This document shows, one piece after another, positions 9,638 to 52,135 of a stretch of 64,000 nt of DNA. This stretch comes from Fibrobacteria bacterium (GTDB taxonomy: Bacteria; Fibrobacterota; Fibrobacteria; UBA11236). The notes under the pieces are model-generated. The model worked only from the letters and a program-made list of their open reading frames with translations. It had not been told where the DNA came from and made no database searches. How positions within the stretch are numbered: position 1 is the first letter of the stretch; the number at the start of each line of letters is the position of its first letter. The translations under genes and the position numbers were made by a program. The stretch is from positions 12,449-76,448 of the forward strand of contig JAYUHW010000039.1 in assembly GCA_043766615.1 (NCBI GenBank), in the 5' to 3' direction.

Positions 9638-11473
9638 CTAAGTTGTTTTGAAAACAAAAGGTGGGCAAGCAAGCTCAATGTTCCCGGTCTCCACGTCTAG
9701 ACGGCAGGCACTCCTTCGGGCTTTTCCACTGGTGGTTTTAGGAAGCCCAAAAGGCCGAAGACAATACCAGGCTGCAAGTTGAATATCGTGTTTTTCTGAA
9801 ACTATTCCCCGGACCTTTGTCGCTAGAGCTAACCAAGTTTCGTCCGTTAGTGGCATGCGAATTTGCTCACGTTCAATTTCCGATACCAAGGCTAAGTTTT
9901 CCTGTCCATTCACGAGTATGGAAATTGCGGCAGATCCATTTTTACGAATCATGGGGTGCGATTGCTCCACGCTGCGTTCAATATCCTGAGGATAGTGATT
10001 CCGACCACGAATGATGATGAGATCCTTCATGCGGCCCGTGATGAATACTTCCTTTTTGGTTAGGAACCCAAGGTCTCCAGTGCGAAGAAAAGGACCTTCA
10101 CCGTTTGAAGTCCGGGCCTGAAATTGGGCTTCAGTTTCCATCGGCTTTCCCCAATAACCTTGGGCGATATGCGGCCCTTTGATCCAGATTTCCCCTAGCT
10201 TGTTTTCACCTTGATCCGTTTGTGTGTCGGGATCAACGATCAGAATATCTGATCCATTTGGCGCAAAGCCATTGCTGACGAAAACGGTTGCGTCCGGGTC
10301 TGATGGCATAGATGTTTCAATACGATTTTCACGAAGGGCTTTGGAAGAAATGCTTAGACGAGGTGAACTATTTTGGGCGTCACCGCCGGACGTGATCAAG
10401 GTCGTTTCCGCCAGGCCATAGCAAGGATAGAACGCGCTTTGATTGAAACCATAAGGGGAAAAGGTTTTGGAAAAAGCGTCCATGGTAAGTGCGCGGATGG
10501 GTTCAGCTCCAGTGAAGGCCAGCTTCCAGGAGGATAGATCAAGTCCTTCAGAAATTCCTTTAGCCGCTGCTTCGACGCAGAGGTCATAACCGAAGTTAGG
10601 ACCACCGCTCGTCGTGATTTTGTGTTTTGAAATGGACTGTAACCATTTTAGCGGCCTTTGTAGGAAAACCAAGGACGGCATAAGGAAGCATGGCGCACCA
10701 AGATAGAGCGGTTGCAGAAGGTTGCCGATGAGACCCATATCATGGTAAAGGGGTAACCAGCCTAGAACGCGTGTTGATTCATCATGCTTGAAATACTGTT
10801 GTATCATCCATTGGTTCTGAAGGATATTACCGTGACTGACGGCCACTCCCTTTGGCTCCGAAGTAGAACCGGAAGTGTATTGCAGAAAGGCTATGGTACT
10901 GGGTCCGATCGCGGGCCGAAGCCAACTTTCGGCCATGGAGGCATAATTGGAGGGCAAGTCCATGTCAGATCGCGACCAGGCCATCTTTTCAAGGATGGGA
11001 TGGGTAGGCAATTGTCTTTGGATTAAATGCCAAAGGGAATCGCAGGTGAGCGCCCCGGAGATTTGCGCATCCACGGCCAATCCCCGTAAATGGTCTGGTG
11101 CACGATTGGGTCGCGGAGGATAAGCAGGTACTGCGATCAGACCCGCATAAAGGCATCCAAAGAATCCGCAGACAAATTCCAGACCGGGAGGATAAAGCAG
11201 CAGGACTCGATCACCAGCCTCCAATCCCATGCGGGTCAGCATATAAACGGCCAAGGCTCGGGCACGAAGATCCAAGCCGAAATAGGAGATGGTTCCATCC
11301 AAATTTCCAGAAGGCGCCACTTCGAGTCCATCGGCCAGCCAACTATAGGCTGAACCTCTGGGATTCAAGCGGGCTCGCAGCTGTAGCAGATCCACCAAAG
11401 TCGAGGGTAACTCGGTGCGGGTGAAAGGATATTCAGACCACAAAATCAAGTTCTCCATCAGCATAGCTGACAT
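9638..11473 (-). CDS. fatty-acyl-AMP ligase (FAAL-type adenylating enzyme)
   Basis: AMP-binding motif YTSGSTSEPKGV. FAAL-like N-terminus TLVDLLQLRARLNPRGSAYSWL. Start moved to internal ATG (about 11473) to avoid about 135 nt overlap with upstream gene. ORF track gives 9638..11569. Confidence 0.85.
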   Translation of the reverse strand: MSAMLMENLILWSEYPFTRTELPSTLVDLLQLRARLNPRGSAYSWLADGLEVAPSGNLDGTISYFGLDLRARALAVYMLTRMGLEAGDRVLLLYPPGLEFVCGFFGCLYAGLIAVPAYPPRPNRAPDHLRGLAVDAQISGALTCDSLWHLIQRQLPTHPILEKMAWSRSDMDLPSNYASMAESWLRPAIGPSTIAFLQYTSGSTSEPKGVAVSHGNILQNQWMIQQYFKHDESTRVLGWLPLYHDMGLIGNLLQPLYLGAPCFLMPSLVFLQRPLKWLQSISKHKITTSGGPNFGYDLCVEAAAKGISEGLDLSSWKLAFTGAEPIRALTMDAFSKTFSPYGFNQSAFYPCYGLAETTLITSGGDAQNSSPRLSISSKALRENRIETSMPSDPDATVFVSNGFAPNGSDILIVDPDTQTDQGENKLGEIWIKGPHIAQGYWGKPMETEAQFQARTSNGEGPFLRTGDLGFLTKKEVFITGRMKDLIIIRGRNHYPQDIERSVEQSHPMIRKNGSAAISILVNGQENLALVSEIEREQIRMPLTDETWLALATKVRGIVSEKHDIQLAAWYCLRPFGLPKTTSGKARRSACRLDVETGNIELACPPFVFKTT

Positions 11474-12560
11474 GACGGAAACAGGCTTCCTGAGAAGCAG
11501 ATGGCGGGAGCCCGGGATGATTGGGGCTCGCCATAAAACGAAAAAATGCAGATTGGAGCCAATAGCCATGCCGCCTAAGATGCTTCCTCCAAGGTGACGG
11601 TTGACTGGAGGCTAGGCAATGGATGACCTGAGCTTTTTGCATTCGGAATGTGGCTTCAACGGCTTGGAGCAGGGCCGTGGTGGCATTCGGCTGGTCGGGC
11701 CGGGCTAAAAGATCCACCAGAAACCCCCGACGTAAGCCTCGCTTTTCCGCCAGGCGTGTCACCGCGTAGCCGACCAACGTCTCTCCATTGCGGGCTAACA
11801 AGATTTGGTAACTGAATCCCGGACATTTCAAAAAACGCCAGCGGAGAAATCGTCTATCTCGCTGAGTCATTAAACTCAGGCCGCGGCCAGGAACATTTGG
11901 AACAAGACCCTGGTGAACAACGCAGGCCCATAAATCATCGCATTCCTCCGGGAAGTCGGTTGCTTCCTTGATGGAAATGTCTTGATAGGTGGGTAATGAA
12001 AATCGCAGGGACAATTCCACCAGCATCCAGATGGGAGAAAAAACGGTTAGAATGGGATGCCAAACTTTGGGCCGCAGAGCTTGGATATCAAGGATCCTTG
12101 TATAAATTGCCGGCTGCCCCAAGTCCTTGCTCCCAAGATGCTTCCAAAGTGCAGCGGAAGATTTGTTTGGCATTCCGATCAATAGCTTTGGTAAATTGAC
12201 CATGGTCTTGGCGAGTGGAATGCCAATCCCGCGATGGGCCGGATGAACCAGGAAATTAAGGACGCAGAACATGGGAATTTCCTTCCCTTGCCATAGTCCC
12301 GGCGTGGGAAATGCTGAGAGGAATCCAATTACCTTACGATTGGATTCTGCGACTAGTAAAATAGGTGGTTCAGAAAAAGGATGATCTATGAGTAACCAAT
12401 TCCATCTTTCTTCAAAAGCCTGGCCCATGGATGGCCCAAAGGTTTCCGAAAACAAAGCAAGCACCGCGCCCTTGTCTGATGGACGAAATTCTCTGACCAA
12501 ACCGGAGGCTCGGGCATCGCCTGGCATGGGAGCCACCAAATCACCGAGGGTAGGATTCAC
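11433..12560 (-). CDS. GNAT-fold acyltransferase (FemAB/N-acyltransferase-like), function unknown
   Basis: 375 aa. GNAT-like core (VIGFLSAF…LVHPAHRGIGI). 4-nt ATGA overlap with upstream ACP gene. Confidence 0.6.
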   Translation of the reverse strand: MNPTLGDLVAPMPGDARASGLVREFRPSDKGAVLALFSETFGPSMGQAFEERWNWLLIDHPFSEPPILLVAESNRKVIGFLSAFPTPGLWQGKEIPMFCVLNFLVHPAHRGIGIPLAKTMVNLPKLLIGMPNKSSAALWKHLGSKDLGQPAIYTRILDIQALRPKVWHPILTVFSPIWMLVELSLRFSLPTYQDISIKEATDFPEECDDLWACVVHQGLVPNVPGRGLSLMTQRDRRFLRWRFLKCPGFSYQILLARNGETLVGYAVTRLAEKRGLRRGFLVDLLARPDQPNATTALLQAVEATFRMQKAQVIHCLASSQPSPWRKHLRRHGYWLQSAFFRFMASPNHPGLPPSASQEACFRHVSYADGELDFVV

Positions 12561-12919
12561 GTTGAGGCTGAAGTGGAAACAGAAACGGGTTTCTGATCTT
12601 GACTTGTGCCTACTGATAAACCCGCTTCAACAGCCAGTTGATCGGAAAGTTCCATGACGTTGGGAAATTCCCACATGATGGTTGGAGAAAGCTTTAGTTT
12701 CATCCAATCCTCCAAGTCGGCCGAAAATTGGACGGCCTGCATGCTGTCGAATCCAAGTTCGTTAAATGGACGGGCGGGATCCAAAGACTCAGGAGATATG
12801 GAAAGGGATTTTGCGAGGTGAGTCACAACAAAATTCCGAATATCCTCTACGTTAACAGGACCGGGTAGTCGCTTGGCTTTTGTGGTGAAAATGGCGCTGA
12901 TCTTGCCTGACAAATTCAT
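12557..12919 (-). CDS. acyl carrier protein (extended N-terminus)
   Basis: 120 aa. Phosphopantetheine attachment motif LGFDSMQAVQF. Confidence 0.8.
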   Translation of the reverse strand: MNLSGKISAIFTTKAKRLPGPVNVEDIRNFVVTHLAKSLSISPESLDPARPFNELGFDSMQAVQFSADLEDWMKLKLSPTIMWEFPNVMELSDQLAVEAGLSVGTSQDQKPVSVSTSAST

Positions 12920-12943
12920 GAGACTGCCTCTTGAGTTTAGCGG

Positions 12944-13927
12944 TTAAAGTTCAATGATACCGGCCGAGTGCTTGGCCTTGGCGATAGCGGACGGGGACGG
13001 TGTCTTTACATTCCAAACTAAGCCACAAATGCGTAAAATGCGGATCACGTCGGCGGCGAAATCGGGTTCCCACCAACGGACGCGATGGTTGGCGGAATTG
13101 GGAAAGGCATGATGATTATTCTGGAGACCTTCACCGAAAGCGACCACGGCAACAAAATAGTTATTGCAACTTCGATCACGTGTCGCAGCGGCAAAGGGAC
13201 GGGTTCCGAACATATGGCTGATTGACCCCACGAACCATAAGGCATGATCCACCAGGCATATACGCACGATGCCGCCCCAAAGCAATCCATATAGGGCGCC
13301 AATCCAATTTCCCGTTGCCATCCAAGCTATCAAGGTTGGAATGACTAAACCTAGGGACAGCCAAAGGAAGTATGTGCGGTGCATGAAAAACAAACGGCGA
13401 TCGCGAAGTAAGTCTGGTGCAAAGTGAGCCCAATTGGTGATTTCCTTTGACAGCATCCACCGGATATGTCCGTACCAAAAACCCTGCAACTCGCGCTTCC
13501 ACCCCTTTCCCTTGACCAGGTTCGGAGAATGGGGGTCCCCTGGGCCATCGCTATGGCGGTGGTGGCGGCGATGAACGGCCACCCACCAGAACAAAGGACC
13601 CTGACCGGCCATCGATCCCAATATGGCTAGGCCGATACGCATGGCCGAACTTGTTTTAAATGAGTTATGCGCAAAATGTCGGTGGAATCCCACATTGATC
13701 CCGAGCATGGTCAAGCAATAAAAGCTAATGAATAAAATAAATTCGAGATTCGAAATACCCCTGTAAAAGAGCGAAGCAATGGCGTAAACGGTAGCCAGGA
13801 ATGGGAGTGTGATCACGGTACCGGCGGTTAAAAGAATATTTCGGTGGGCCTTGGGGCTAGCAATGCTTACCGGCACTGGCCCCCGTTGGCTTACGGGGCC
13901 GGATTCTTGGATATCTACAATACTCAT
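12944..13927 (-). CDS. membrane fatty-acid desaturase (Delta9 acyl-CoA/acyl-lipid desaturase family)
   Basis: Three His boxes: HRHFAH, HRRHHRHSD, HNNHHAFP. Multiple TM segments. Confidence 0.85.
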   Translation of the reverse strand: MSIVDIQESGPVSQRGPVPVSIASPKAHRNILLTAGTVITLPFLATVYAIASLFYRGISNLEFILFISFYCLTMLGINVGFHRHFAHNSFKTSSAMRIGLAILGSMAGQGPLFWWVAVHRRHHRHSDGPGDPHSPNLVKGKGWKRELQGFWYGHIRWMLSKEITNWAHFAPDLLRDRRLFFMHRTYFLWLSLGLVIPTLIAWMATGNWIGALYGLLWGGIVRICLVDHALWFVGSISHMFGTRPFAAATRDRSCNNYFVAVVAFGEGLQNNHHAFPNSANHRVRWWEPDFAADVIRILRICGLVWNVKTPSPSAIAKAKHSAGIIEL

Positions 13928-13937
13928 AGCATAGCCT

Positions 13938-14963
13938 TCAAGTTACGTACTCGCGAACATCAGTAACTTTTGCAGCTTGGCGGCGGGCCTCAATGGCGGA
14001 AGCTGTGGGCTTTTTCAAATGATGGACTAAGCCTACAAATTGGAGACCTTTCACGATCATGCCGGAGCAATCAAGCTGCCACCATGCGAATTGGTTATCG
14101 GCGGTGGAGGGAAAGGCATGGTGATTATTATGCCAAGAACCTCCCAAAGAAGGCAGTGCAAGCCATGCGACATTTGCCGCAACACCCTTGGCAGCAAAAG
14201 GACGGCTTCCGAAAATATGGCAGGCACTGTTGACGGCCCAGACTGCATGATGAACAAGAAAAATTCGCGCCAATCCTCCCCAGATAAAACCTTCCCAAGC
14301 CCCGGCCAAAGCATTCCCTTTAAGACTATACTCCACTAGAGCTCCAATGGACGCCGGCAAAGCTAACCCCATGAAAACCCAAATACCGTAAGTTTGGTTG
14401 AGAGAGAATAACCGTCGATCCTTAAGCAAATCAAGGGCGAAGCGATTCCAATCCACTTGATCAGGCTGGATGAGCCATCCGCAATGTCCATGAAAAAATC
14501 CCCGCACTCTTCCAAGCATTCCCGGACCCATGCTTTGCGGCGAATGCGGGTCACCTTGTTCATCGCTAAAAGCATGATGCTGTCTATGCGTGGCCGCCCA
14601 GAAAAAGACTGGACCTTGAGCGGCCATGGATCCAAGGACGACAAACAGATCGCGTAAGGGCGTAGTATAAGCGCCATGTGAGATAAGTCGATGGAATCCA
14701 GCCTCAATTCCGAATAGGGTGGAAAAATAAAGAGTTCCAAGGAGCATGAATTTCCAGGGAACAAATCCTGTTAAAACAAGATCCGCTCCTGCCAAAAGGA
14801 AACCCAGGGTAGGAATCGTGATCACGGCAAGGGCAATCCGATATCGGATCCGGCTCGTATTCAGCCTATCTTGATCAGCCGCCCGTGGCTTAACGGGGCT
14901 AGTCAAGTGGGCAACAACTTGGGGTGGCGTCATGGTTGCCTTTTCAATAACCCTTGGCGTCAT
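13938..14963 (-). CDS. membrane fatty-acid desaturase (Delta9 acyl-CoA/acyl-lipid desaturase family), paralog of the neighbour
   Basis: His boxes HRLISH, HRQHHAFSD, HNNHHAFP. 10-nt spacing to downstream desaturase. Confidence 0.85.
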   Translation of the reverse strand: MTPRVIEKATMTPPQVVAHLTSPVKPRAADQDRLNTSRIRYRIALAVITIPTLGFLLAGADLVLTGFVPWKFMLLGTLYFSTLFGIEAGFHRLISHGAYTTPLRDLFVVLGSMAAQGPVFFWAATHRQHHAFSDEQGDPHSPQSMGPGMLGRVRGFFHGHCGWLIQPDQVDWNRFALDLLKDRRLFSLNQTYGIWVFMGLALPASIGALVEYSLKGNALAGAWEGFIWGGLARIFLVHHAVWAVNSACHIFGSRPFAAKGVAANVAWLALPSLGGSWHNNHHAFPSTADNQFAWWQLDCSGMIVKGLQFVGLVHHLKKPTASAIEARRQAAKVTDVREYVT

Positions 14964-15205
14964 AGGATCGAGGTCTCCGTCGATTTGACAATTAAAAATT
15001 GTCCGTAAATAGTCCCTGCTGGTCTTTGAGCGTGATTCGCCAAGGACAAAGAAGTCTTATATCTAACTCAAAATCTATTGTCGGATGTGTCTGAATTCAA
15101 ATAGAAATAGGATTGAAAATCATTTGAATACAAGGGAGGTTGAAATGAAAAGGAAATCTCTACTGTATTCAATCGAAATTAAAAGTCACCATATTTTTCT
15201 GTAAA
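14964..15205. promoter_or_regulatory. AT-rich divergent intergenic region (likely promoters for desaturase operon on minus strand and for the pseudogene on plus strand)
   Basis: 242 nt non-coding, AT-rich, between start of 13938..14963(-) and 15206(+). Confidence 0.35.
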
Positions 15206-37838: not shown

Positions 37839-39080
37839 TTAGAACCCGAATTTCTCACCAAGAGTGTAATACCAGCGTCCTTTTGCGAATTCCTTGGACT
37901 TGCCTGGGTCGGGATAGTAAAAGACGGTCAGATAATCGTCCACGTGGAAATGATTTTCTGCTTTCGCGATCAAAAATTCGTGAACCTTTTTGGGCAAGCG
38001 TGCCAAGGCCTGACCCATTTCTTTTAAGATTTCGGAATGAGAACGGAACCCATGCCGCAGGAAGACCTCGTAACTAATGGTGTCCGCGATTCCCATGACC
38101 GTTAGGACTGGCGCACTTCGACTGGCTAGCTGCATGCAAACCCCGATCAATAGGTCGTATACACGTGCGTCCAAAGCTATGAATTCCATCAGGGCCGCAG
38201 CTTCGCAGCGATTTGGATGGATGCGCAGCACGGCCAATCCCATCAGTTTGCCACCCTGGAGCAGGCGGATCTTTTCATAAGTGTAGCCGTCACCGCCTCC
38301 GTACCTCCAATTGAGGAATTCAGCATTCCGGCAAGTACCAAACTCAATGCTCCGCATAAATTCGTTGCAGAAACCATCAATGTCTTTCGCCACAAATCTG
38401 TCGAGCTTCTCCCAGCTCCACCCGGTAGGTAAGCTATGCAAACGAAAGCGGCCAAAGTTCAGTAATCGATGGACGGCCTTACGGAGTGGGCCTTGCGGCA
38501 GCCAAAGGGCTGGAGTGAATACTTTGGATTGATAAACGCTTTTGGGGCCGTCGGCACGACGGTAGAGTCGCTTTGCGACCAAATAGCCAGGTTTGTTGGG
38601 TGTGCCAAATAGCAACTCTACACCTTTTTCTGCCAGGCGCTCTCCAAGCATTGTGTCCATTTTCCGGATGACATCATGCTTGCCGCCGCGGTAATTCTCA
38701 TTGACGATGAATTCCGTCCCCAGCGCCAATTGAGGAACGCGGCAACCTGGTATGGTGGGAAAGACAACGGCTGCCAAGTGACCGACAATGGTTTCGTCAG
38801 GCGCTAGTGCGAGGATGATGCAATCGCTGCAATCTACCGGACCCTGACGGAATTTCCAGTCCATGAAAGCGGCTCCACCGCGCGATCCCAGGTACTTGGA
38901 CTTAAATGCTAGGAGCGCTGCTTCGAATTTAGGGGTCATGAATTGAAGAGTGAGTTCAGGAGAGTCTTTGAGTGTCTCTCCAGCTACGTTTTCTATGGCT
39001 TGCATGATTTCTCCTTTCCAGCGGAAGCACGGAGCTTCCACCTCAGAACAATTTGCGGCGCAATGCGCCAGAATCTTCAA
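37839..39080 (-). CDS. GNAT/FemAB-like acyltransferase (intact copy)
   Basis: 413-aa ORF. Source of homology for remnant 34910..35329. Confidence 0.6.
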   Translation of the reverse strand: MKILAHCAANCSEVEAPCFRWKGEIMQAIENVAGETLKDSPELTLQFMTPKFEAALLAFKSKYLGSRGGAAFMDWKFRQGPVDCSDCIILALAPDETIVGHLAAVVFPTIPGCRVPQLALGTEFIVNENYRGGKHDVIRKMDTMLGERLAEKGVELLFGTPNKPGYLVAKRLYRRADGPKSVYQSKVFTPALWLPQGPLRKAVHRLLNFGRFRLHSLPTGWSWEKLDRFVAKDIDGFCNEFMRSIEFGTCRNAEFLNWRYGGGDGYTYEKIRLLQGGKLMGLAVLRIHPNRCEAAALMEFIALDARVYDLLIGVCMQLASRSAPVLTVMGIADTISYEVFLRHGFRSHSEILKEMGQALARLPKKVHEFLIAKAENHFHVDDYLTVFYYPDPGKSKEFAKGRWYYTLGEKFGF

Positions 39081-44072: not shown

Positions 44073-45131
44073 ATGAATGCGGTTCTTAAACGACAATTCG
44101 CAAGCCTAGTTTGGCGATTGGGTTTAATATCGGTCGCGGGTAGGATCCGAAGGGCCATCCGAGGACCACGTCTTATTGTGCTTTGTTACCATCGCATCGA
44201 TGCCAATGCATCCCTACCCGCACACTCGGCTTCTCCTGAAGCTTTTATGGAGCAGGTGAAATGGTTTGTCCATCGATTTAAAATCCTAAGCCTAGATGAT
44301 GTTTCTGGATATTTGAAAAAAAGGCTGGCCTTGCCAGGAGATTGCATCTCGCTTACTTTCGATGATGGCTATTCGGACAATTACACAACTGTGATGCCTA
44401 TTATCACACGTTTAAAATTGCCCGTTGCCTTTTTCATTTCCACGGATCCTTTACTCCGCAGAATACCTTACTGGTACGATATCCTTTGGTCACGACTCAG
44501 GAATTGGACCGGCCAGGAGCTACCGGGCACTTACCAGGGCAGATTACCAAACCATTTAAAAACGGCTTTGTACTGGGCGGTCAAGAATCCTACTAAGCTT
44601 GGCAAGCAAAAAGTTCTCAATATCGCCAAAGGCTTGAACGTATCAGAGCGAAAGCAATTACTGGACGGCTTGGAAAAAGTGCAGCGACTGGGTACCATGG
44701 ATCCGGTCTGTGAAACGATGTCGATTCAGGAAGCCAGACATGCTCTTGCACTCGGATTGATTATCGGTGGTCATACGCGCAGTCATCCTTCTCTGGCTCG
44801 GGTTTCCCCAGAAGAATGTCGGGCTGAGATCATGAATGCCTTGCAAGATTTAGCCGCTCAAGGATTTTCTCCGCGATATTTTGCCTATCCCTTTGGGGAG
44901 TCCGTAGATGTGGGCGGACTAGAGGGTTATCCTCGTCGGGTCTTAATGGAAATTCAAGGACAGAAGAGTAACGAAGGGAAAAAGATCCAAGGCGTAGAGC
45001 TCGCCTTGACTACTGAGGAGCGGGCGATTCGCCCGGGAGATGATCCGTTCTTGGTGCCTCGGAAAGTAATAACCCCGCAAAGCTTGGGACAGATTGCCCT
45101 AAAACTGGAAATGCTGGCATGGCGGAAATGA
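44073..45131 (+). CDS. CE4 (NodB-type) polysaccharide deacetylase
   Basis: Motifs TFDDGY, HTRSH, FAYPFG. Confidence 0.85.
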   Translation: MNAVLKRQFASLVWRLGLISVAGRIRRAIRGPRLIVLCYHRIDANASLPAHSASPEAFMEQVKWFVHRFKILSLDDVSGYLKKRLALPGDCISLTFDDGYSDNYTTVMPIITRLKLPVAFFISTDPLLRRIPYWYDILWSRLRNWTGQELPGTYQGRLPNHLKTALYWAVKNPTKLGKQKVLNIAKGLNVSERKQLLDGLEKVQRLGTMDPVCETMSIQEARHALALGLIIGGHTRSHPSLARVSPEECRAEIMNALQDLAAQGFSPRYFAYPFGESVDVGGLEGYPRRVLMEIQGQKSNEGKKIQGVELALTTEERAIRPGDDPFLVPRKVITPQSLGQIALKLEMLAWRK

Positions 45132-46378
45132 TTGCCTACCTTATCCATTCCTTTCCGCAATTCTCAAGCACATTCATAAATGATGAAGTAGACGAGATGC
45201 GCAGGCAGGGTGAGAAAATAGTCCTTTTTGCCGTGCAACGTCCGAGTTCTAAAGAGTACCCGCCGGATTTTAAACGCTTCGTGGATGAAACAACCTATAT
45301 CTTTCCCATTTCTAAATGGCTATTGCTTCAAAGGCATGGGCAAGCTCTTCTATGTAAACCAGTCTGTTACCTCCGGTGTTTACTGTGGATTTTGATCAAG
45401 CCGGAACTGAAGTTTCGCAACCGAATCCGAACCTTGTTTCATTTTGCTGAAGCCATTTATCTGTATCCGGAAATTCGGTTGCGCGGGTGTAAACACATCC
45501 ATGTGCATTTCCTTTTTGGCGGGGCGTCCATTGCGTATTTCATCCAAAGAATGCATGGAATGACCTATAGTGTTACTGCCCATGGCAGCGATATTTTCGT
45601 GGATAGGCTATTGCAATCGGAAAAACTGGAACAGTCCCGATTCATCCGTGTCTCCACGCGCTATAATGCCGGCTTCTTGCAGCCTCTGATGTCACCGGAA
45701 CGCCGGCAGCGACTTCAAGTGATTCCCTTTGGAATCGATAGGAGCAAGATCCCGGCCCTCGTCAAAATTCCGTCCCTTGCCTTCCATAGCTTGGTTGCCC
45801 AAGCTGAAAATGAATCAGAACCTAAAGTGCCATTGCGGCTGCTGAGTGTGGGACGCCTAATCTGGCAAAAGGCTCAGCATTTGCTCTTGGAGGCTTGCGC
45901 AGAAATTGCCAATCAAGGCTATGATTTTCATCTTCGATTGGTGGGTGAGGGGCCATTGCGGGCCGCTCTTGAAAAACAGCTTGTGGACTTGGGCCTGGAG
46001 GCTAAAGTGACTTTGGTTGGAGCCTTGCCCCAGGATGCAGTTTGGCTGGAATATCGCAAAGCCGACCTCTTTATTCTTTCCAGCATTAGTGAGGGTTCGC
46101 CCTTTGTGATTATGGAAGCCAAGGCCTGCGGATTACCCGTAATTGCCCCCGATTTGCATGGAATTCCGGAAATGATTGAGGATGGGGTGGATGGCCGGCT
46201 TTTTAAGACGGGATCTTCCAAAAATTTATCCAGGAGGATGTTGGAATTGATCAGAAATGAAACGCTTCGGCAACGAATTGGAACCACCGCAGAAATTTCA
46301 GCTGGGCAAATTGATCTCACCCGATCCGTAAATCGATTTCGGCAATTATTCCAGGACTTTCCTCAGGTCATTGGATAA
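45119..46378 (+). CDS. GT4-family glycosyltransferase
   Basis: EX7E motif EGSPFVIMEAKACGLPVIA. 13-nt overlap with upstream gene. Confidence 0.85.
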   Translation: MAEMIAYLIHSFPQFSSTFINDEVDEMRRQGEKIVLFAVQRPSSKEYPPDFKRFVDETTYIFPISKWLLLQRHGQALLCKPVCYLRCLLWILIKPELKFRNRIRTLFHFAEAIYLYPEIRLRGCKHIHVHFLFGGASIAYFIQRMHGMTYSVTAHGSDIFVDRLLQSEKLEQSRFIRVSTRYNAGFLQPLMSPERRQRLQVIPFGIDRSKIPALVKIPSLAFHSLVAQAENESEPKVPLRLLSVGRLIWQKAQHLLLEACAEIANQGYDFHLRLVGEGPLRAALEKQLVDLGLEAKVTLVGALPQDAVWLEYRKADLFILSSISEGSPFVIMEAKACGLPVIAPDLHGIPEMIEDGVDGRLFKTGSSKNLSRRMLELIRNETLRQRIGTTAEISAGQIDLTRSVNRFRQLFQDFPQVIG

Positions 46379-46403
46379 GGTTTAGGAAGCATAGGTCAGT
46401 GTT

Positions 46404-47561
46404 TTGAAACTTTTTTTCATCGTGGACAATAACGAGCCACATGCCGGGGCGGGTGGATTCTATGCCATCTATAAATTCGCCGAATTTCTGGCTCATCGTG
46501 GCCATAGCGTTTGTATCTCAGGTGTTCACGACCTAGGCTGGGTCAAGCCGGGTCCGAACTTGAAACTTAAGTTTCGGCCCAGTCTACCTCGGAAAAAACT
46601 CCTAATCGCAAAACTAGATCGGATCCTTTCACGGATATGCGATCGTTGGTGGCTGACTTTGAATATCAGACGGTTTCAACCAGAATGGATTGTAGGAGTA
46701 TTGACTTATTCCGCGATTAAGGCCGAAGCCTTAGGGCGAAATTTCCAAATCCCCGTTGCCAACTTTATTTATGAATGTCCTCCTTGGCTACAGGAGATAT
46801 GGGGAGCAAGGTACATCAGCGAAAACTCGAATCCTTTTACGATCAAGCTATGGGAGAATACGCGAAGCGCCTATTTAGGATCACGAGTTCTCTTCCCTAA
46901 TTCAGGATTATCACGGCACTATAATTCAAAGTGGCTGCAAGGTAAGGGTGTGGCCGAACCTATTCATCCAGGGATTGATCCCGAACAAATGCCCTTTCAA
47001 CCACCCGAAATGGAACCTCTAAAACTGGATCCGGAGCGCAAGCATTTGCTCTTTGTGGGGCGTCTGGTGGACAGCAAAAATGTCCATGACCTCATTGCCG
47101 CTTTCCATCGCCTGGAAACGTCTAACGTAGATCTCCATATCTGCGGCACAGGCCCTGAATTGGAACGCTTAAAAACCTTGGCTTACGGATCCAATCACAT
47201 TCACTTCCATGGTTTTGTAGCTGATCCCATCCTCTGGAGTTTGTTCCGCCAATGTCACATCGTGGTTTATCCAACCGGCTTTGAAGGCTTTGGTATGCCG
47301 CCCATGCAAGCACTGTATTTCGCCAAGCCGTGTATCGCCACCGATCTTGCCATCTTCCAAAGCGTCTTCGGAGACCGGCTGGAATATTTTCCCTTAGGCG
47401 CGATCGAGGCTTTAGCGAGTCGTATAGACCACTTGCTGCTTGATCCCGTTTATTGCCGGAAGCGCGGTGATGCAGGACGAAAATTTATCCTTGAAAATTT
47501 TACCTGGGACATTGCTGCCCAAAGAATTGAACAAAAACTTTTGGAGGCTAGTCATGATTGA
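46404..47561 (+). CDS. GT4-family glycosyltransferase (EX7E second Glu replaced by Gln)
   Basis: EGFGMPPMQALYFAKPCIATD. Confidence 0.8.
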   Translation: MKLFFIVDNNEPHAGAGGFYAIYKFAEFLAHRGHSVCISGVHDLGWVKPGPNLKLKFRPSLPRKKLLIAKLDRILSRICDRWWLTLNIRRFQPEWIVGVLTYSAIKAEALGRNFQIPVANFIYECPPWLQEIWGARYISENSNPFTIKLWENTRSAYLGSRVLFPNSGLSRHYNSKWLQGKGVAEPIHPGIDPEQMPFQPPEMEPLKLDPERKHLLFVGRLVDSKNVHDLIAAFHRLETSNVDLHICGTGPELERLKTLAYGSNHIHFHGFVADPILWSLFRQCHIVVYPTGFEGFGMPPMQALYFAKPCIATDLAIFQSVFGDRLEYFPLGAIEALASRIDHLLLDPVYCRKRGDAGRKFILENFTWDIAAQRIEQKLLEASHD

Positions 47562-48813
47562 ATCCACCGAGGCGATAAAAACATCAAAGCCGGATCTAAG
47601 GGTCCCAGCTCCCGTTACCTCGTCCCCGATCGCCGCTCCAATCACAAAATCCAATGACCGTAAATTGCGCGTGGCCGTGGTCGGAACCGTTGGGTTACCG
47701 GCCCGTTACGGAGGTTTTGAAACTTTAGCGCATTACTTGGTTGAACACTTGGGAAGCGAATTCGATTTTATCGTTTATTGCAGCGGTCCGGATTACAAGG
47801 AACGACCTAAGGATTTCTTGGGCGCGCGGTTGGTCTACTTGCCCCTGCGTGCCAATGGAGCCCAAAGTATTCCTTTCGATATCTTAAACTATATTCACGC
47901 CCTAAAAAATTGCGACTTGCTGCTTGTCTTGGGCGTATCCGGTGGATTGGCATTACCCTTGGTGCGGCTGCTTGGGAAGCCGAGTATTCTAAATATCGGT
48001 GGAATGGAATGGCAACGCAGCAAATGGGGGCGCTGGGCCAGTAGGTTCTTGCATTTATCCGAGGCTGTAGCGGTGCGTGCCGCTTCGGTTGTGGTTTCCG
48101 ATAACCAAGGTATTACCCATCACTTGAAAACCGCATATAAACGGTCCAGCACTTTAATTGAATATGGCGGAGACCAAACCACGAAACCTGAGATTACTCA
48201 AGGACTGATCAAAAAGTATCCCTTCCTCAGTCGTCCCTATGCTTTTGCTGTGGCTCGTATTCAATCCGATAATAATCCTGAACTTCTGCTTTATGCCTAT
48301 AATCAGGTTCCCGAAGTGGAGTTTGTTTTTATTGGAAATTGGAACCGTTCGGAATATGGTCGTGAATTGAAGAAGCATTACGAGGTTTTTCCGAATCTAC
48401 ATCTGCTTGAAGCCATTTATGATCCCGTGGAATTGAATGTTATTCGTGCCAATTGCGCCTATTATGTCCACGGGCATTCGGCAGGGGGAACAAATCCGGC
48501 ATTGGTCGAGGCTATGAACCTTTCCTTGCCCATTGCTTCCTACGACGTGGTCTACAATCGCGCTACTACGGAAAACCGAGTCAAGTATTTTCGGAATGTG
48601 GCTACTCTGGTGGAGTTGATACTCCAAGTCCCGCAATCGGAATGGGATAATCAGCGGGAAGTGGTAAAGGACATCGCCCATCGACGTTACCGGTGGGCAG
48701 GTATTTCCGGAAAATATGCCGAGCTTTTCAGAAAGTTCGATCCTAGGCCAAAGCTTGGAGCCGTCTCCGAGATAACGAAATCGGATGCGGCCGCTATGGA
48801 GATTACCAGGTAA
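47554..48813 (+). CDS. GT-B fold glycosyltransferase (DUF1972-type N-terminus)
   Basis: Start set at ATG 47554 preceded by GGAGG and overlapping upstream stop. KLRVAVVGTVGLPARYGGFETL N-terminal Rossmann-like. Confidence 0.75.
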   Translation: MIESTEAIKTSKPDLRVPAPVTSSPIAAPITKSNDRKLRVAVVGTVGLPARYGGFETLAHYLVEHLGSEFDFIVYCSGPDYKERPKDFLGARLVYLPLRANGAQSIPFDILNYIHALKNCDLLLVLGVSGGLALPLVRLLGKPSILNIGGMEWQRSKWGRWASRFLHLSEAVAVRAASVVVSDNQGITHHLKTAYKRSSTLIEYGGDQTTKPEITQGLIKKYPFLSRPYAFAVARIQSDNNPELLLYAYNQVPEVEFVFIGNWNRSEYGRELKKHYEVFPNLHLLEAIYDPVELNVIRANCAYYVHGHSAGGTNPALVEAMNLSLPIASYDVVYNRATTENRVKYFRNVATLVELILQVPQSEWDNQREVVKDIAHRRYRWAGISGKYAELFRKFDPRPKLGAVSEITKSDAAAMEITR

Positions 48814-48815
48814 TA

Positions 48816-50306
48816 GTGGCTGTTCGGGTTGGTAATCTCCTAGGCCATTCGGCCATTTACATGGCTGCAAACTTTCTCCAAAGGGGACTGTCGTTTTTAC
48901 TTATACCCCTTTACGCTGCCTACTTTTCCACGGCTGAATTCGGAGCCATGGATATGCTGTATCAAATGGCTATTGCTTTGGCTTTGCTAACCTCCTTTGG
49001 TCTGCCTCAAGGCTTAGTGCGTGGGTTCTATTTGGCGGGCGAATCAAAAGATCAAGATTCCGTGGACACCCAGATGCCTCTTGAGGAGCGTCGGAAATTA
49101 TTGGGCGCCTTAATTACCTTTCTGCTGCCAATCAGCCTGGTTTGCACGGGGGCTTTAGTTCTTTTTGCCGAACCGCTTTCTCATTTGCTATTTCAGAGTG
49201 AAGGCAGGTCCCAGTGGATAAGGCTAACAGCATTATTATACCTAGCCTTAGTGATGCAAGGCTTACCCCTCCAGCTTTACAAAACGGAGCAGAAGTCTCG
49301 AGCCTTTGCAGCTTGGTCCTTGACCGCGTTTAGTTTGATTGCCTTGGGGAACCTTTATTTCATTGTCGTTTTGAAAATGGGATTGCCGGGCATGCTGCTT
49401 GGGAATCTTTTGGGAGTTGGAGGCACAGCCCTGATCCTATCCCTATTGATATTGCCCAAGGCTCACTTGAATTGGGACTGGAAACGCTTGGCTCCACTTT
49501 TCGCATTTGGATTACCCATGCTTCCTAATTTGCTCAGCCGGAAAATTTTAGAAGTTGGCAATCGATATATGATTCCTCATTGGCATGGATTGTCGGAAGT
49601 AGGGATGTTTTCCATGGGGGCTAGGGTATCGAGTATTATGGATATCCTCCTGCTCGTTCCCTTTCTTTATGCCTGGCAACCTTTTTTCTATTCCTTGGCA
49701 GGAAAAGCCGATTCACCCAAAATTTTCGCTCGCGTTACCCATTATTTCTTTTTGCTTTTAACCGGAATATTTTTGGGCATGCAAGTTTTTCAGACGGCGA
49801 TCCTCCACTTTCTGGGTCGGGGAAGATATGATGAGGCAGGCCCGGTGGTTTCGCTATTGGTTCTGGCTGCCATGTTGAATGGAATCCAATATTGCGTATC
49901 AGCGGGAATCCATTTGCGCAAAAAATTGGTGACGGAAATGTGGCTCATGGCCGGGATTGCGACCGTCAACATTATGCTTAATCTTTTGCTCATTCCCAGG
50001 TTTGGCGCTCAAGGCGCCGCCGCCGCGACTGCCACGGCCTTTGGTTTTTTTCTGATCGGATCTTTTATTACCGCCCAACGAGTTTATCCCGTGCCCTATT
50101 TATGGCATCGAAGCGTTCCGATTTTTTTGTGGGCGGTTTGTGCCTATGCCGCTTTGCTGGTAATTCATTCTCTTTTGATCCGCGTTTGCCTTGTTTTGAG
50201 TTTTGCCATTGTTGGACCGATTTGGGATCTTAAGCGAAATGGCGAATTGAGTATGGCATGGAAGTTTGTTCTTGAAAAAATAGTTCGGATTCGGGCCGGT
50301 TCCTGA
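48816..50306 (+). CDS. Wzx-type oligosaccharide flippase (polysaccharide biosynthesis protein family)
   Basis: About 14 predicted TM helices. Typical Wzx N-terminus. 48816 is a GTG. Alternative ATG at about 48861. Confidence 0.75.
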   Translation: MAVRVGNLLGHSAIYMAANFLQRGLSFLLIPLYAAYFSTAEFGAMDMLYQMAIALALLTSFGLPQGLVRGFYLAGESKDQDSVDTQMPLEERRKLLGALITFLLPISLVCTGALVLFAEPLSHLLFQSEGRSQWIRLTALLYLALVMQGLPLQLYKTEQKSRAFAAWSLTAFSLIALGNLYFIVVLKMGLPGMLLGNLLGVGGTALILSLLILPKAHLNWDWKRLAPLFAFGLPMLPNLLSRKILEVGNRYMIPHWHGLSEVGMFSMGARVSSIMDILLLVPFLYAWQPFFYSLAGKADSPKIFARVTHYFFLLLTGIFLGMQVFQTAILHFLGRGRYDEAGPVVSLLVLAAMLNGIQYCVSAGIHLRKKLVTEMWLMAGIATVNIMLNLLLIPRFGAQGAAAATATAFGFFLIGSFITAQRVYPVPYLWHRSVPIFLWAVCAYAALLVIHSLLIRVCLVLSFAIVGPIWDLKRNGELSMAWKFVLEKIVRIRAGS

Positions 50307-50324
50307 GATCAAAAACTCGATTTA

Positions 50325-50801
50325 TTGAAGGCAAAGATGTTGCATTTCACTCCGGAACATTTTTTCACGGATTTTTTCAAGAACCGGGTTGGTCACTATG
50401 CAACTGCCGATATTGCGATGCCGGGCGTCGATTCTAAGGTGGACTTACGCAAATTGCCTTTTCCTGAAGCATCCTTCGATTTCGTCTATGCCTCGCATGT
50501 GCTGGAACATATCGACGAAGATGCCAAAGCCATTGCAGAAATCAGCCGAATCCCTTTGAGGAATATCATGTTCGGGCCCCGGGTCCTGACTATTTCAATC
50601 GGTACAATCCCCATTTCCAAACGGTGCAAGTCCACCACTCTTCAGATTTTCCGGAAAAGTACCAGTGTTTTATTTATGAAGATCGAAGCGTCTGGCCGAC
50701 GGCTCAATGTCCGCTATTACCCACTATGGCGGGTAGTCGGCACGAGGACATGGTACCGGTTTGCTTTGTCTCGTCGCCCTAGAGACAAAATTTCCCGGTA
50801 G
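50325..50801 (+). pseudogene. probable remnant of a SAM-dependent methyltransferase (lacks motif I; C-terminal part looks out of frame)
   Basis: Contains FDFVYASHVLEHI (methyltransferase type 11 post-I/II region) but no GxGxG upstream. Confidence 0.4.
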
Positions 50802-50806
50802 CGGAA

Positions 50807-52135
50807 TCAATAATTGGAGATTTTCTGGAATGCCTCGATGCTATAAACCTTGAGCCGCCCCTGCTGCACGAAGGTATCCACATAGGCCAAAAGCTCTTCC
50901 CAATCGGCGCGATACCATTTGTTGGAATCTAATAAGCCGCTAGCGACAATTTCGTGGACGCCAATGATACTGGCCATCCGGTTGTTCACCAAATTGAGAA
51001 TGACACTCTTAGCCATATCCAGGGTCACCCCGTTTTGTAGAAAACCAAGAACTCGTAGTCGATAAGGATCGGAAAAAGGAAGTGCTTCCCCTTCCGGCCA
51101 ACCCACTACCAAACGGGCCGTTTGGGCATTCAGTTTGACAATGGAGTCCTTGGCTAGGTCGCTTTTTCCGTAGGGGTAAGCGAAATGTCTGAAACCCGTG
51201 AATCCATTGCACTGCAGGAACCCGGCATTTCTTTTCATGGAGCGATCGGCTGAATCATTGGTCAAGCTAGTGATACTGTCATGGGTCCATAGATGGCTCC
51301 CAATAGTCCAGCCTCCACTATCTTGCAAAACTTTCAGCCTTGCCATGCCCATTTTATTAACGGCTCCTACCGAACTGCCGTTCACATAAATGTTCCCTGA
51401 AAAACCATACCTACGCATAGCTGGAACGCCATTGGTGTCGAAGTTGGCCCATTGATCATCTTCAGTAATGAAGAGCACTGCCGGCGGCAGTGGGGAAGGA
51501 TAAAAACCGAGCTCACCAAAAATCAAAGTATCATTTAATCCAGGTTTTGCGCTTAACCCAATCCGAATGCGCGAGACGGAATGGCAATCAAAACCGGGTG
51601 TGGAATTGAAAACGCGAACCGCCAGGTTTACCCGGGACCAATGTCCAGTATCAAAGAGTTGCGGGTTTCTGACCTGGTGGTGGATGGTATAAATGGCATT
51701 GTCTTCCAGTCGGATACCGCTGATGAGTTGAATTCCGAAAACTTGGACCGAAGCAAGATTCGCCATGTTGGGGGCCCAAAATTTAAGTGAGAGATTCGCA
51801 TCACTGCAAACGTTTTCGGGCGGTTCCAGAGCCTTTTCAAGGTAAGTTGTGGAATAATTGTCGCCGATTACCCTAAGCGCTTTCGGAGCCATCAGATAGT
51901 GGGCTGAATCCGATTCCAGGAGTCCGCTCCCATAAACCCTATTCCATTCAGTATTAATTGGCTTATTGAAATACGAGCGGACGTGATAGCCGACAATTCC
52001 TTTATCCTCTGGCCTAGTGGGGAGAAAATCATCCGGAAAAATATTCGGTTCCAAACAGGAAATATTGGCAAACGGACCCTGTTTAAATGCCATTACGAGC
52101 AAAAGGCCAATTAAAAAATTTGGACGAATTTTCAT
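50807..52135 (-). CDS. secreted two-domain protein: unknown N-terminal domain + CE4 deacetylase domain with TEDD variant of motif 1
   Basis: Signal peptide from ATG 52135. TEDDQW (vs TFDDG), HLWTH, FAYPYG motifs. Confidence 0.7.
   Translation of the reverse strand: MKIRPNFLIGLLLVMAFKQGPFANISCLEPNIFPDDFLPTRPEDKGIVGYHVRSYFNKPINTEWNRVYGSGLLESDSAHYLMAPKALRVIGDNYSTTYLEKALEPPENVCSDANLSLKFWAPNMANLASVQVFGIQLISGIRLEDNAIYTIHHQVRNPQLFDTGHWSRVNLAVRVFNSTPGFDCHSVSRIRIGLSAKPGLNDTLIFGELGFYPSPLPPAVLFITEDDQWANFDTNGVPAMRRYGFSGNIYVNGSSVGAVNKMGMARLKVLQDSGGWTIGSHLWTHDSITSLTNDSADRSMKRNAGFLQCNGFTGFRHFAYPYGKSDLAKDSIVKLNAQTARLVVGWPEGEALPFSDPYRLRVLGFLQNGVTLDMAKSVILNLVNNRMASIIGVHEIVASGLLDSNKWYRADWEELLAYVDTFVQQGRLKVYSIEAFQKISNY

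Follow-up and report, generated by a model that had tools for sequence, protein, structure and literature searches.

A candidate operon for thiotemplated fatty-acid tailoring with a tandem GNAT as proposed off-loader in Fibrobacteria

Five minus-strand genes in the window, the whole 64,000-nucleotide stretch of Fibrobacteria DNA analysed here, probably constitute a thiotemplated fatty-acid tailoring operon. A fatty acyl-AMP ligase (FAAL) would adenylate a free fatty acid and load it onto a dedicated acyl carrier protein (ACP) without CoA, two membrane desaturases (DesA and DesB) would modify the ACP-bound chain, and a tandem GNAT acyltransferase would transfer the product to an amine, plausibly that of an amino sugar.

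Operon layout and recurrence

All five ORFs are found where the sequence-only reading had placed them, with the close packing it described:

13938..14963, minus strand: DesA, membrane di-iron desaturase (341 aa; Pfam FA_desaturase, 7.8e-15)
12944..13927, minus strand: DesB, membrane di-iron desaturase (327 aa; Pfam FA_desaturase, 2e-22)
12557..12919, minus strand: dedicated ACP (120 aa; Pfam PP-binding, 1e-13)
11433..12560, minus strand: tandem (double) GNAT acyltransferase, the proposed off-loader (375 aa, GTG start)
9638..11473, minus strand: FAAL (611 aa from the ATG at 11473)
14964..15205, no strand: AT-rich intergenic region of 242 nt upstream of DesA; a divergent ORF (15206-15760) lies on its other side

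DesA and DesB are separated by 10 nt and DesB and the ACP gene by 24 nt, the ACP gene, including its stop codon, runs 4 nt into the GNAT gene, and the GNAT and FAAL genes share 41 nt. The longest ORF for the FAAL spans 9638-11569, and the public gene call starts at 11473. The 242-nt intergenic stretch is the likely promoter region; a minus-strand sigma-70 scan of it produced no convincing match, with scores at background. At the other end, a convergent gene terminates 45 nt downstream of the operon. Domain calls agree with the earlier view of a self-contained unit of FAAL, dedicated ACP, two membrane desaturases and GNAT, and the cassette encodes no PKS or NRPS, as had also been claimed.

The arrangement is far from chance, since a gene-neighbourhood search of the kind proposed in the sequence-only reading recovers the same five genes, in the order DesA-DesB-ACP-GNAT-FAAL, in at least six other independent contigs. 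The module is present in the window and in loci L001, L005/L013, L009 and L011, and partially in L007 and L014; GNAT identity across these loci falls to about 27-31%, and over this large divergence the five genes behave as one co-varying unit. No gene beyond the five is shared among the cassette loci. The cassette is rare: a single one of 185,579 species representatives has it, as do a few metagenome contigs.

Proposed loading and desaturation of the acyl chain

The ligase consists of an AMP-binding domain and a DIP2-like C-terminal domain (Pfam, 2e-63), carries the YTSGSTSEPKGV motif, and has FAAL models as its top NCBIfam matches. All of its best PDB matches are FAALs, led by 7r7e, the FAAL domain of a Picosynechococcus PCC 7002 PKS (E 3.4e-163; PMC11837247), and followed by 3kxw and FadD23/32/28. 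As the closest solved relative is thus an olefin-synthase FAAL domain, the loaded chain is probably long. The ACP bears its phosphopantetheine serine within LGFDSMQAV; among NCBIfam models it comes closest to PKS ACP domains, one of them the N-terminal ACP of Pks13, and it is homologous to a polyyne-cluster ACP (1.6e-12).

DesA contains the His boxes HRLISH, HRQHHAFSD and WHNNHHAFP, and DesB contains HRHFAH, HRRHHRHSD and QNNHHAFP. The motifs quoted in the sequence-only reading are therefore present except for the third box of DesB, given there as HNNHHAFP, in which Q takes the place of the first His. This QNNHH box is common to all DesB-type sequences compared, including the second desaturase of a polyyne-type cluster on a Streptomyces sp. 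Mg1 plasmid, where FAAL, desaturase, desaturase, ACP, desaturase, alpha/beta hydrolase and rubredoxin genes make up the polyyne core gene content. DesB has four predicted hydrophobic segments and matches mouse SCD1 (4ymk) with an E value of 9.5e-29.

The two desaturases pair one-to-one with those of the Streptomyces cluster. The first Streptomyces enzyme has DesA as its reciprocal best hit (264 bits, compared with 225 for DesB), and the second has DesB (285 bits, compared with 223 for DesA). In a neighbour-joining tree whose deep nodes are weakly supported, DesA clusters with the first desaturases of Streptomyces sp. Mg1 and Pirellulales (bootstrap 83), and DesB with the second desaturases of Streptomyces sp. 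Mg1 and loci L097 and L099 (bootstrap 93). By sequence, DesA is thus the putative counterpart of the first JamB-like desaturase in polyyne-type clusters (CayB position), and DesB that of the second (CayC position). A lone Nostoc desaturase, encoded without a FAAL or ACP, is 45% identical to DesB, about equal to the similarity of the polyyne enzyme. The nearest DesB relatives (52-54% identity) were found, in all three contexts examined, in cassettes of FAAL, two desaturases and ACP, and these supply either a PKS, a further tandem GNAT or a KR/GT28 set.

The sequence-only reading had assigned the pair to the acyl-CoA/acyl-lipid Delta9 desaturases. Given relatives that adjoin FAAL and ACP genes and the pairing with polyyne-type JamB-like enzymes, the substrate is instead most likely the ACP-bound chain. 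Desaturation and acetylenation of ACP-bound chains by JamB are established in the literature, and DesA (HxxHH third box) and DesB (QxxHH third box) could likewise form alkynes as well as alkenes; together they would introduce two or more unsaturations, possibly including one triple bond. Alkyne chemistry cannot be assumed, because the whole window lacks a third (Delta12-like) desaturase, a thioesterase and a rubredoxin. In the tetrayne pathway, product formation needed the thioesterase and all three desaturases, and rubredoxin raised the yield (PMC9828172).

It is very improbable that the cassette serves lipid housekeeping, with the FAAL and ACP recycling fatty acids, the desaturases acting on membrane phospholipids and the GNAT being an unrelated acetyltransferase. 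Both desaturases do fall within the SCD/Delta9-type superfamily, and their relatives are named 'stearoyl-CoA desaturase' in the sources; however, they score 84 and 66 bits and miss the DesA equivalog cut-off of 400 bits, and the secondary-metabolite-like cassettes of the three DesB relatives point elsewhere. The rarity of the cassette, the co-variation of its genes and the physical fusion of GNAT-family domains to ACPs in other proteins also argue against such a role.

The tandem GNAT and its proposed acceptor

Pfam matches to the GNAT (Acetyltransf_1/_9, 5.7e-07 and 4.3e-06) are confined to its N-terminal part. This domain carries a conserved HPxxRGxG motif, read as the pantetheine/pyrophosphate-binding loop, and ADGELDFV lies C-terminal. 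The protein adopts a tandem GNAT fold like that of Eis, N-myristoyltransferase and GlcN-N-acetyltransferase, and its fold neighbours are all N-acyltransferases acting on primary amines. FeeM, OlsB and FemAB were each considered and rejected as identities. The sequence-only reading had raised a likeness to FeeM and OlsB, but Pfam and NCBIfam profile searches showed no sequence relationship to Acetyltransf_5, FeeM or OlsB. Nor is the protein the FemAB peptidoglycan enzyme that the same reading had named as a counter-indication; it is an Eis/N-myristoyltransferase-like tandem GNAT.

Carrier proteins recur beside this family. In most cassette loci the GNAT gene comes immediately after an ACP gene, and in fusion proteins GNAT-family domains directly follow PP-binding domains, as in P0032, with the order FAAL-ACP-(KS-AT-KR-ACP)x2-GNAT, and P0078 (KR-ACP-GNAT). 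Further ACP-GNAT fusions are P0141 and P0128, and P0102 is a GT2-GNAT fusion. Cassette-type members do not form a well-supported clade in the family tree (bootstrap 35). The GNAT probably transfers the carrier-bound acyl group to an amine rather than releasing it as a free acid, which retains the earlier proposal as the best reading; transfer is presumably to N rather than O. The tandem GNAT would thereby replace the thioesterase of polyyne clusters, taking the modified chain off the phosphopantetheine arm and joining it to a primary amine.

The acceptor is suggested by genomic context, including two further features of the window:

37839..39080, minus strand: second, divergent tandem-GNAT family member, outside the operon (family profile A2, hmmsearch E 9.3e-24)
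44073..53600, no strand: part of the exopolysaccharide locus orthologous to the cassette-adjoining genes of L001 (Pfam annotation and identity)

The second GNAT, which has no Pfam or NCBIfam match, sits inside the exopolysaccharide locus, the whole of which covers about 23.7-53.7 kb. The orthologous part encodes a NodB-type deacetylase, two GT4 enzymes, a DUF1972 glycosyltransferase, a Wzx flippase and two deacetylases (456-458 aa), and identity to the L001 genes is 63% for GT4, 65% for the DUF1972 glycosyltransferase, 64% for Wzx, and 51% and 48% for the deacetylases. In L001, from another Fibrobacteria MAG, the cassette directly follows Wzx, encloses a deacetylase and abuts the exopolysaccharide locus; in the window, the Wzx and deacetylase orthologues lie at 46-53.7 kb, about 31 kb from the cassette. 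Such adjacency occurs in L001 only among the cassette loci, and the neighbourhood it shares with the window may reflect the ancestry of related genomes. The enclosed deacetylase, an orthologue of the 456-458 aa enzymes, has a lipoprotein-type signal; as a probably extracytoplasmic protein, it would be unable to provide substrate for a cytoplasmic GNAT.

In the wider family, neighbours in 62 non-cassette loci include GT2 (21), Polysacc_deac_1 (16), GT4 (13), Wzy (9) and exosortase (7). NodB-type deacetylases accompany GNAT-family genes in exopolysaccharide loci, often directly after the GNAT, and Polysacc_deac_1 is immediately downstream in all five non-cassette loci whose coordinates were checked. 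One cassette variant has glmU and glmS upstream, and another (L098) has a Gal-3-O-sulfotransferase downstream. From this context we infer an amino sugar or exopolysaccharide as acceptor more than the free lipoamino acid of the sequence-only reading. The most likely class would be a de-N-acetylated amino sugar of a poly- or oligosaccharide precursor from the regional Wzx/Wzy locus.

Close to that earlier proposal, the same core chemistry could end with the GNAT N-acylating an amino acid, a polyamine or another small free amine. The resulting lipoamino acid or lipoamine, unsaturated or alkynyl, would be diffusible and serve as a signal, surfactant or antibiotic. Such an outcome is unlikely, though it has points in its favour: the module is self-contained, with no acceptor-making gene conserved alongside; L005 has no glycan genes within 8 kb of its cassette; and Eis and the polyamine and aminoglycoside acetyltransferases among the fold neighbours use small amines. 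Acyl-ACP-dependent N-acyl amino acid synthases of the NAS/FeeM type are also known (PMC12479983), but the cassette GNAT shows no relationship to FeeM in the profile searches, its wider family resides overwhelmingly in glycan loci, and the cassette itself is in or near glycan genes in L001, the window, the glmU/glmS contig and L098. We give still less credence to lipidation of a lysine or an N-terminal glycine in a protein or peptide, yielding a lipoprotein or lipopeptide with an unusual unsaturated chain. N-myristoyltransferase, HlyC-type toxin acyltransferases and the RiPP lipidation enzymes KspN and PhaN offer models for it, but neither a precursor peptide nor a conserved target gene is found with the cassette, and the recurrent neighbours of the GNAT family are glycan enzymes rather than RiPP or toxin genes.

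Relation to known systems

Transfer to an amino sugar would mirror the logic of Nod factors, in which a dedicated ACP carries an unusual polyunsaturated chain that is N-transferred to de-N-acetylated glucosamine. The Nod system comprises the NodB deacetylase, the NodA N-acyltransferase, the NodF ACP and NodE. NodB-homology deacetylases likewise accompany the GNAT family, and the amino-sugar acceptor of the Nod system would have its equivalent here. However, NodA is not a GNAT, and the Nod chain derives from a ketosynthase rather than from a FAAL and desaturases. In mycobactin synthesis, the FAAL MbtM loads the ACP MbtL, MbtN adds a double bond, and the GNAT MbtK acylates lysine N6. The mbt-2 locus, mbtK-L-M-N, was reportedly described by Krithika et al. 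in PNAS in 2006. It shares with the window cassette the logic of FAAL, ACP, unsaturation and GNAT transfer to an amine; however, MbtN is a flavin acyl-ACP dehydrogenase where the cassette has membrane di-iron desaturases, MbtK has a single domain and belongs to a different GNAT family, and the cassette FAAL matches the MbtM model only distantly (194 bits against a cut-off of 621). The four mbt gene names occur together in PMC10667711.

The two-GNAT-domain fold is shared with Eis-like tandem GNATs and N-myristoyltransferase. HfsK, a tandem GNAT of an exopolysaccharide pathway, is suggested to acylate the amines that the deacetylase HfsH uncovers (PMC5362036).

[quoted passage not shown] Like the window cassette, they combine a stand-alone FAAL and a dedicated ACP with two neighbouring JamB-like desaturase genes directly before the ACP gene. 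They differ in possessing the Delta12-like third desaturase, thioesterase and rubredoxin, in releasing the chain by hydrolysis rather than through a tandem GNAT transferase, and in placing the FAAL gene at the 5' rather than the 3' end of the operon. The terminal-alkyne cassettes jamABC and ttuABC consist of the FAAL JamA, the membrane desaturase/acetylenase JamB and the ACP JamC (PMC8406139, PMC10088813, bioRxiv 10.1101/291195). Judged by sequence, the window cassette would share their thiotemplated desaturation of a FAAL-loaded, ACP-bound chain, and it fits the operational three-domain definition of Mullins et al. It has two putatively JamB-like desaturases, whereas jamABC has one, and its chain would be handed over by a GNAT, whereas known jamABC-type cassettes pass theirs to a PKS or NRPS.

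The sequence-only reading is thus partly supported overall. Its view of the five-gene arrangement as undescribed holds for the GNAT coupling, which is absent from the literature searched, but not for the FAAL-ACP-desaturase core, which is known from jamABC and polyyne clusters (PMC8406139, PMC9828172). The off-loader is the new part of the cassette. If our reading is true, the operon joins a known thiotemplated JamABC/polyyne core to a new GNAT off-loading step in place of hydrolysis.

Layout and conservation of the cassette

The five minus-strand ORFs of the cassette were recovered exactly where the sequence-only reading had placed them. Taken in gene order, the first two junctions are gaps of 10 and 24 nt, and the last two are overlaps of 4 and 41 nt.

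Features of the cassette and its flanks
Upstream of the cassette: AT-rich intergenic region of 242 nt with a divergent ORF
13938-14963, minus strand: DesA, a membrane desaturase
12944-13927, minus strand: DesB, the second membrane desaturase
12557-12919, minus strand: acyl carrier protein (ACP)
11433-12560, minus strand: GNAT, the 375-aa tandem acyltransferase, with a GTG start
9638-11569, minus strand: fatty acyl-AMP ligase (FAAL) ORF; the public gene call begins at 11473 and gives 611 aa
Ending 45 nt downstream of the cassette: convergent BNR-repeat gene

Pfam assigns FA_desaturase to DesA and DesB, PP-binding to the ACP and AMP-binding plus a DIP2-like C-terminal domain to the ligase, and matches the GNAT weakly at its N terminus. 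The motifs quoted in the sequence-only reading are present, except that the third His box of DesB is QNNHHAFP, not HNNHHAFP. Rfam and tRNA scans of the window returned no match, and a promoter and terminator scan gave signal at background level only. Further along, a di-haem cytochrome c peroxidase gene (CCP_MauG; 18024-20021, minus strand) lies in a segment with a GC content of 0.59 against about 0.47 in its flanks and may have been acquired horizontally.

The GNAT is the rarest part of the cassette. Word-indexed searching of 5.8 billion proteins found four sequences only, a word-indexed search with a 60-sequence GNAT alignment gave just six proteins, and a close relative occurs in just one of 185,579 species-representative genomes, that of a Fibrobacteria MAG. 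The co-occurrence of FAAL, ACP, GNAT and desaturase genes elsewhere, a check proposed from sequence, was found: the order DesA-DesB-ACP-GNAT-FAAL is kept in the Fibrobacteria MAG locus L001 and in the relatives' loci L005/L006/L013, L009 and L011, and recurs, interrupted by contig ends, in L007/L008/L012 and L014. Among loci keeping this order, GNAT identity to the window protein falls as low as 27-31%. Because the order is the same across loci and an all-against-all comparison of their flanking ORFs found no sixth conserved gene, the five genes constitute a conserved, self-contained module. The cassette is rare and carries a transferase of an uncharacterised family.

Proposed loading and desaturation of a carrier-bound chain

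The ligase is, by model ranking and its closest solved structures, a fatty acyl-AMP ligase. Among NCBIfam models it scores higher with the FAAL models PRK05850 (382 bits) and PRK09192 (342 bits) than with the best CoA-ligase model (271 bits), all of these scores lying below the curated whole-protein cut-offs. Over its full length it aligns with the FAAL domain of a Picosynechococcus PCC 7002 PKS (PDB 7r7e, E 3.4e-163), and the next PDB matches are 3kxw, a Legionella FAAL, and the mycobacterial FadD23, FadD32 and FadD28 (PMC11837247). With a dedicated ACP gene in the same operon, the ligase is predicted to load the holo-ACP without CoA. The ACP carries the serine motif DS(M/L) and comes closest to models of PKS ACP domains, among them the N-terminal ACP of Pks13, paralleling the PKS-like affinity of polyyne ACPs reported by Kim et al.

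DesA and DesB had been read from sequence as acyl-CoA/acyl-lipid Delta9 desaturases. Both are SCD-type di-iron enzymes, and DesB matches mouse SCD1 (E 9.5e-29). Against the model for the housekeeping Delta9 desaturase also named DesA (NF049918, cut-off 400 bits), the window's DesB and DesA reach 84.1 and 66.4 bits, respectively. The nearest relatives of DesB, 52-54% identical, come from Gemmataceae, Pirellulales and one further contig, and all three sit in cassettes with a FAAL, two desaturases and an ACP. One of these cassettes feeds a type I PKS (L097) and another is accompanied by a KR, PEMT and GT28 set (L099). In the third (L098, 1-5371) the genes run (desaturase)-desaturase-ACP-FAAL-tandem GNAT, and the next gene resembles a galactose-3-O-sulfotransferase, which hints at a sulfated glycolipid-type product.

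In a protein-level search, the best plasmid matches were FAAL/ACP cassettes of Burkholderia gladioli. Strain BSR3 has two different plasmid cassettes with a FAAL, an ACP and two desaturases (L091 on bgla_4p and L092 on bgla_1p), one accompanied by a methyltransferase, an amidohydrolase and PaaI and alpha/beta hydrolases, the other by a methyltransferase, a PKS, a P450 and LuxR-type regulators; both appear distinct from the caryoynencin cluster cited for that strain. Also matched was a plasmid of Streptomyces sp. Mg1 encoding a FAAL, two desaturases, an ACP, a third desaturase, an alpha/beta hydrolase, a rubredoxin and a P450, an order matching what Mullins et al. define as the seven-gene polyyne core (PMC8406139).

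The window's two desaturases pair off with the first two of the Mg1 cluster. In a neighbour-joining bootstrap tree, built without an outgroup because outgroup distances were saturated, and with weak deep nodes, DesA-type sequences group with the first Mg1 desaturase (bootstrap 83) and DesB-type sequences with the second (bootstrap 93). Reciprocal phmmer scores follow the same division: the first Mg1 desaturase scores 264 bits with DesA and 225 with DesB, the second 285 with DesB and 223 with DesA. The third His box reads GEG[LN]QNNHH in all DesB-type sequences, the second polyyne-cluster desaturase among them, and WHNNHH in all those of DesA type. The reference for these comparisons is a cluster that shares the gene content of known polyyne clusters. 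DesB is about equally similar to the polyyne enzyme and to a lone Nostoc desaturase.

Desaturases in the CayB and CayC positions are described as JamB-related (PMC9828172), and JamB is a desaturase/acetylenase that requires an ACP-bound substrate (PMC10088813; bioRxiv 10.1101/291195). Given the ties of tree, phmmer scores and His boxes to the polyyne-type pair, together with this requirement of JamB, DesA and DesB most plausibly belong to the JamB lineage of desaturases and depend on the ACP, instead of being the Delta9 enzymes first proposed.

In gene content, the window conforms to the operational definition of a jamABC-type alkyne cassette, with a FAAL, a membrane desaturase and an ACP within 5.3 kb on one strand (PMC8406139). 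It also has, next to FAAL and ACP, the JamB-like desaturase pair that marks the polyyne core, but lacks that core's third, Delta12-like desaturase, thioesterase and rubredoxin. The third Mg1 desaturase and the thioesterase, rubredoxin and P450 of that cluster have no phmmer match (E <= 0.01) among ORFs of at least 40 aa in the 64-kb window, and none of them is conserved in the other cassette loci. The cassette enzymes would desaturate an ACP-bound chain; with the three polyyne components missing from the whole 64 kb, a triple bond is only a possible outcome.

The tandem GNAT as a candidate off-loader

The GNAT belongs to a large, unnamed and uncharacterised family, with 6,244 matches at E <= 1e-3 and 57 at E <= 1e-30 in a profile search of 1.84 billion representatives. 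Pfam recognises its N-terminal part only (Acetyltransf_1/_9), and NCBIfam has no model for it. A structure model built from 60 sequences (pLDDT 90.4) has close structural neighbours that all acylate primary amines.

Structural neighbours of the GNAT model, with similarity scores
Eis-like tandem GNATs: 19-21.4
N-myristoyltransferase: 20.2
Glucosamine N-acetyltransferases: 17.8-18.4
FemX: 11.4

Like Eis-like tandem GNATs of the Acetyltransf_9 type, the protein has two GNAT domains and matches Acetyltransf_9 at its N terminus; an invariant HPxxRGxG in the N-terminal domain is read as its cofactor-binding loop. At 375 aa it compares with 383-409 aa for Eis-like chains, of which some 280-290 residues align, and it has no SCP2 Pfam match. 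In Eis and N-myristoyltransferase, the C-terminal carboxylate takes part in catalysis; the conserved DGELDF motif that ends the GNAT may be a parallel and offers a lead.

Other N-acyltransferase identities were considered. The sequence-only reading had proposed comparison with FeeM (Acetyltransf_5), OlsB and FemAB models, and the GNAT matches none of them. For a FeeM, OlsB or N-acyl amino acid synthase identity, PF13444 and related models in Pfam and NCBIfam gave no match at E <= 0.01. A FemAB peptidoglycan enzyme, the identity that would have overturned the original reading, is likewise rejected, as the protein lacks the features of FemAB/Acetyltransf_6 enzymes (HfsK and CelD type; PF02388, PF13480) and FemX scores 11.4 against 19-21.4 for Eis-like proteins. 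[quoted passage not shown]

Domain fusions within the family bear on the acyl donor. The 4122-aa protein P0032 is a FAAL-ACP-KS-AT-KR-ACP-KS-AT-KR-ACP-tandem GNAT megasynthase, a PKS with a terminal GNAT in place of a thioesterase, which suggests amide or ester release of the polyketide chain. P0078 is a KR-ACP-GNAT protein, and P0141 and P0128 are ACP-GNAT fusions; a single clade of cassette-type and ACP-fused members is not resolved in the family tree. Because these fusions mirror the ACP-then-GNAT order and 4-nt overlap of the window, they support an acyl off-loading role and argue for acyl-ACP as the probable donor. The polyyne pathway is thiotemplated, running from FAAL to a dedicated ACP and then to thioesterase release (Kim et al.), and the GNAT would stand in for that thioesterase and remove the acyl group from its carrier. 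Thiotemplated desaturation followed by GNAT off-loading is, overall, a somewhat probable model.

In its FAAL-ACP-desaturase core the cassette is of a known kind, that of jamABC and the polyyne clusters, and its overall logic resembles that of mycobactin mbtK-L-M-N as well, although the desaturation and transfer enzymes are unrelated. No description of a JamB-like desaturase pair with a tandem-GNAT off-loader was found in the literature searched, including PMC10088813, and the 2025 review of FAALs does not describe the combination or mention a GNAT (PMC11837247). The initial view that the arrangement is not a described pathway thus holds for the coupling to the GNAT, but not for the core.

Glycan context and the possible acyl acceptor

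The conserved module includes no gene for making the acceptor. Among 62 GNAT-family loci without FAAL, ACP or desaturase genes, neighbours include GT2 glycosyltransferases (21 loci), NodB-type polysaccharide deacetylases (16), GT4 glycosyltransferases (13), Wzy (9), exosortase (7) and asparagine synthase (6), with GT10, Wzx and DegT recurring at fewer loci. In the five loci checked (L016, L018, L019, L029 and L030), a NodB-type deacetylase lies directly downstream of the GNAT, 3-4 nt away, and the pair looks like an unnamed two-gene exopolysaccharide module. A GT2-GNAT fusion also exists (P0102).

The window itself contains a large Wzx/Wzy-type exopolysaccharide locus (23719-53600, about 23.7-53.7 kb). 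It encodes a WecA-like Glycos_transf_4 protein, a GT2, a DUF6259 protein, a methyltransferase, an Acetyltransf_6 (HfsK/FemAB-like) protein, several GT4, Wzy, a chain-length determinant, Wza, three Polysacc_deac_1 proteins, a DUF1972 glycosyltransferase and Wzx.

Feature within the exopolysaccharide locus
37839-39080, minus strand: another tandem GNAT of the family, divergent in sequence (profile E 9.3e-24), with no match in Pfam or NCBIfam

The deacetylase at 44073-45131 is most similar to GNAT-adjacent deacetylases elsewhere (24-26% identity, E about 1e-15 to 1e-17). Directly beyond the locus, an outer-membrane and surface gene run (53597-63659, minus strand) includes two CarboxypepD_reg proteins, one with a TonB-dependent receptor Plug domain, and a 1228-aa Big_7/Y_Y_Y/PKD-domain protein.

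In the Fibrobacteria MAG (L001), the cassette directly follows a block of GT4, DUF1972 glycosyltransferase and Wzx genes, orthologous to genes of the window locus at 63%, 65% and 64% identity, and two deacetylases are orthologous at 51% and 48%. This synteny may be inherited and not functional, because the window and the MAG are related. The L001 cassette encloses a deacetylase gene whose product has a lipoprotein-type signal and is probably extracytoplasmic. On the contig ENA ERZ1426832, a cassette variant with three desaturases has glmU-like and glmS-like genes (UDP-GlcNAc supply) directly upstream, while cassette locus L005 has no glycan genes nearby.

The glycan neighbours of the family, of L001 and of the window, with the glmU/glmS and sulfotransferase variants, favour an amino sugar among acceptors, and by this association an amino-sugar or exopolysaccharide acceptor is tentatively proposed. 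Such acylation would resemble in logic that of NodB/NodA/NodF and that proposed for HfsH and HfsK of the Caulobacter holdfast (PMC5362036). In its full form the proposal is speculative: the cassette might place a di-unsaturated or alkynyl acyl chain, amide-linked, on a de-N-acetylated amino sugar of a Wzx/Wzy exopolysaccharide or oligosaccharide.

FAAL-ACP-desaturase cassettes are a known bacterial route to alkyne and polyyne lipids, and their described exits are a thioesterase, giving the free acid, or a PKS/NRPS. To these a conserved cassette with a final transferase step would add direct amide transfer as a third exit, with possible access to enzymes that place alkyne-bearing or polyunsaturated chains on amines, useful for bio-orthogonal tagging. 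The large tandem-GNAT family adjoining deacetylases in exopolysaccharide loci suggests a mechanism, open to testing, by which bacterial surface glycans could be re-decorated with lipid or acyl groups. If the glycan proposal is true, the cassette would perform a Nod-factor-like acetyl-for-lipid swap, yielding a lipidated, possibly clickable surface glycan in Fibrobacteria-related bacteria, and, wherever exopolysaccharide loci pair a GNAT of this family with a NodB-type deacetylase, the GNAT would serve as a general N-acyl re-decoration enzyme.
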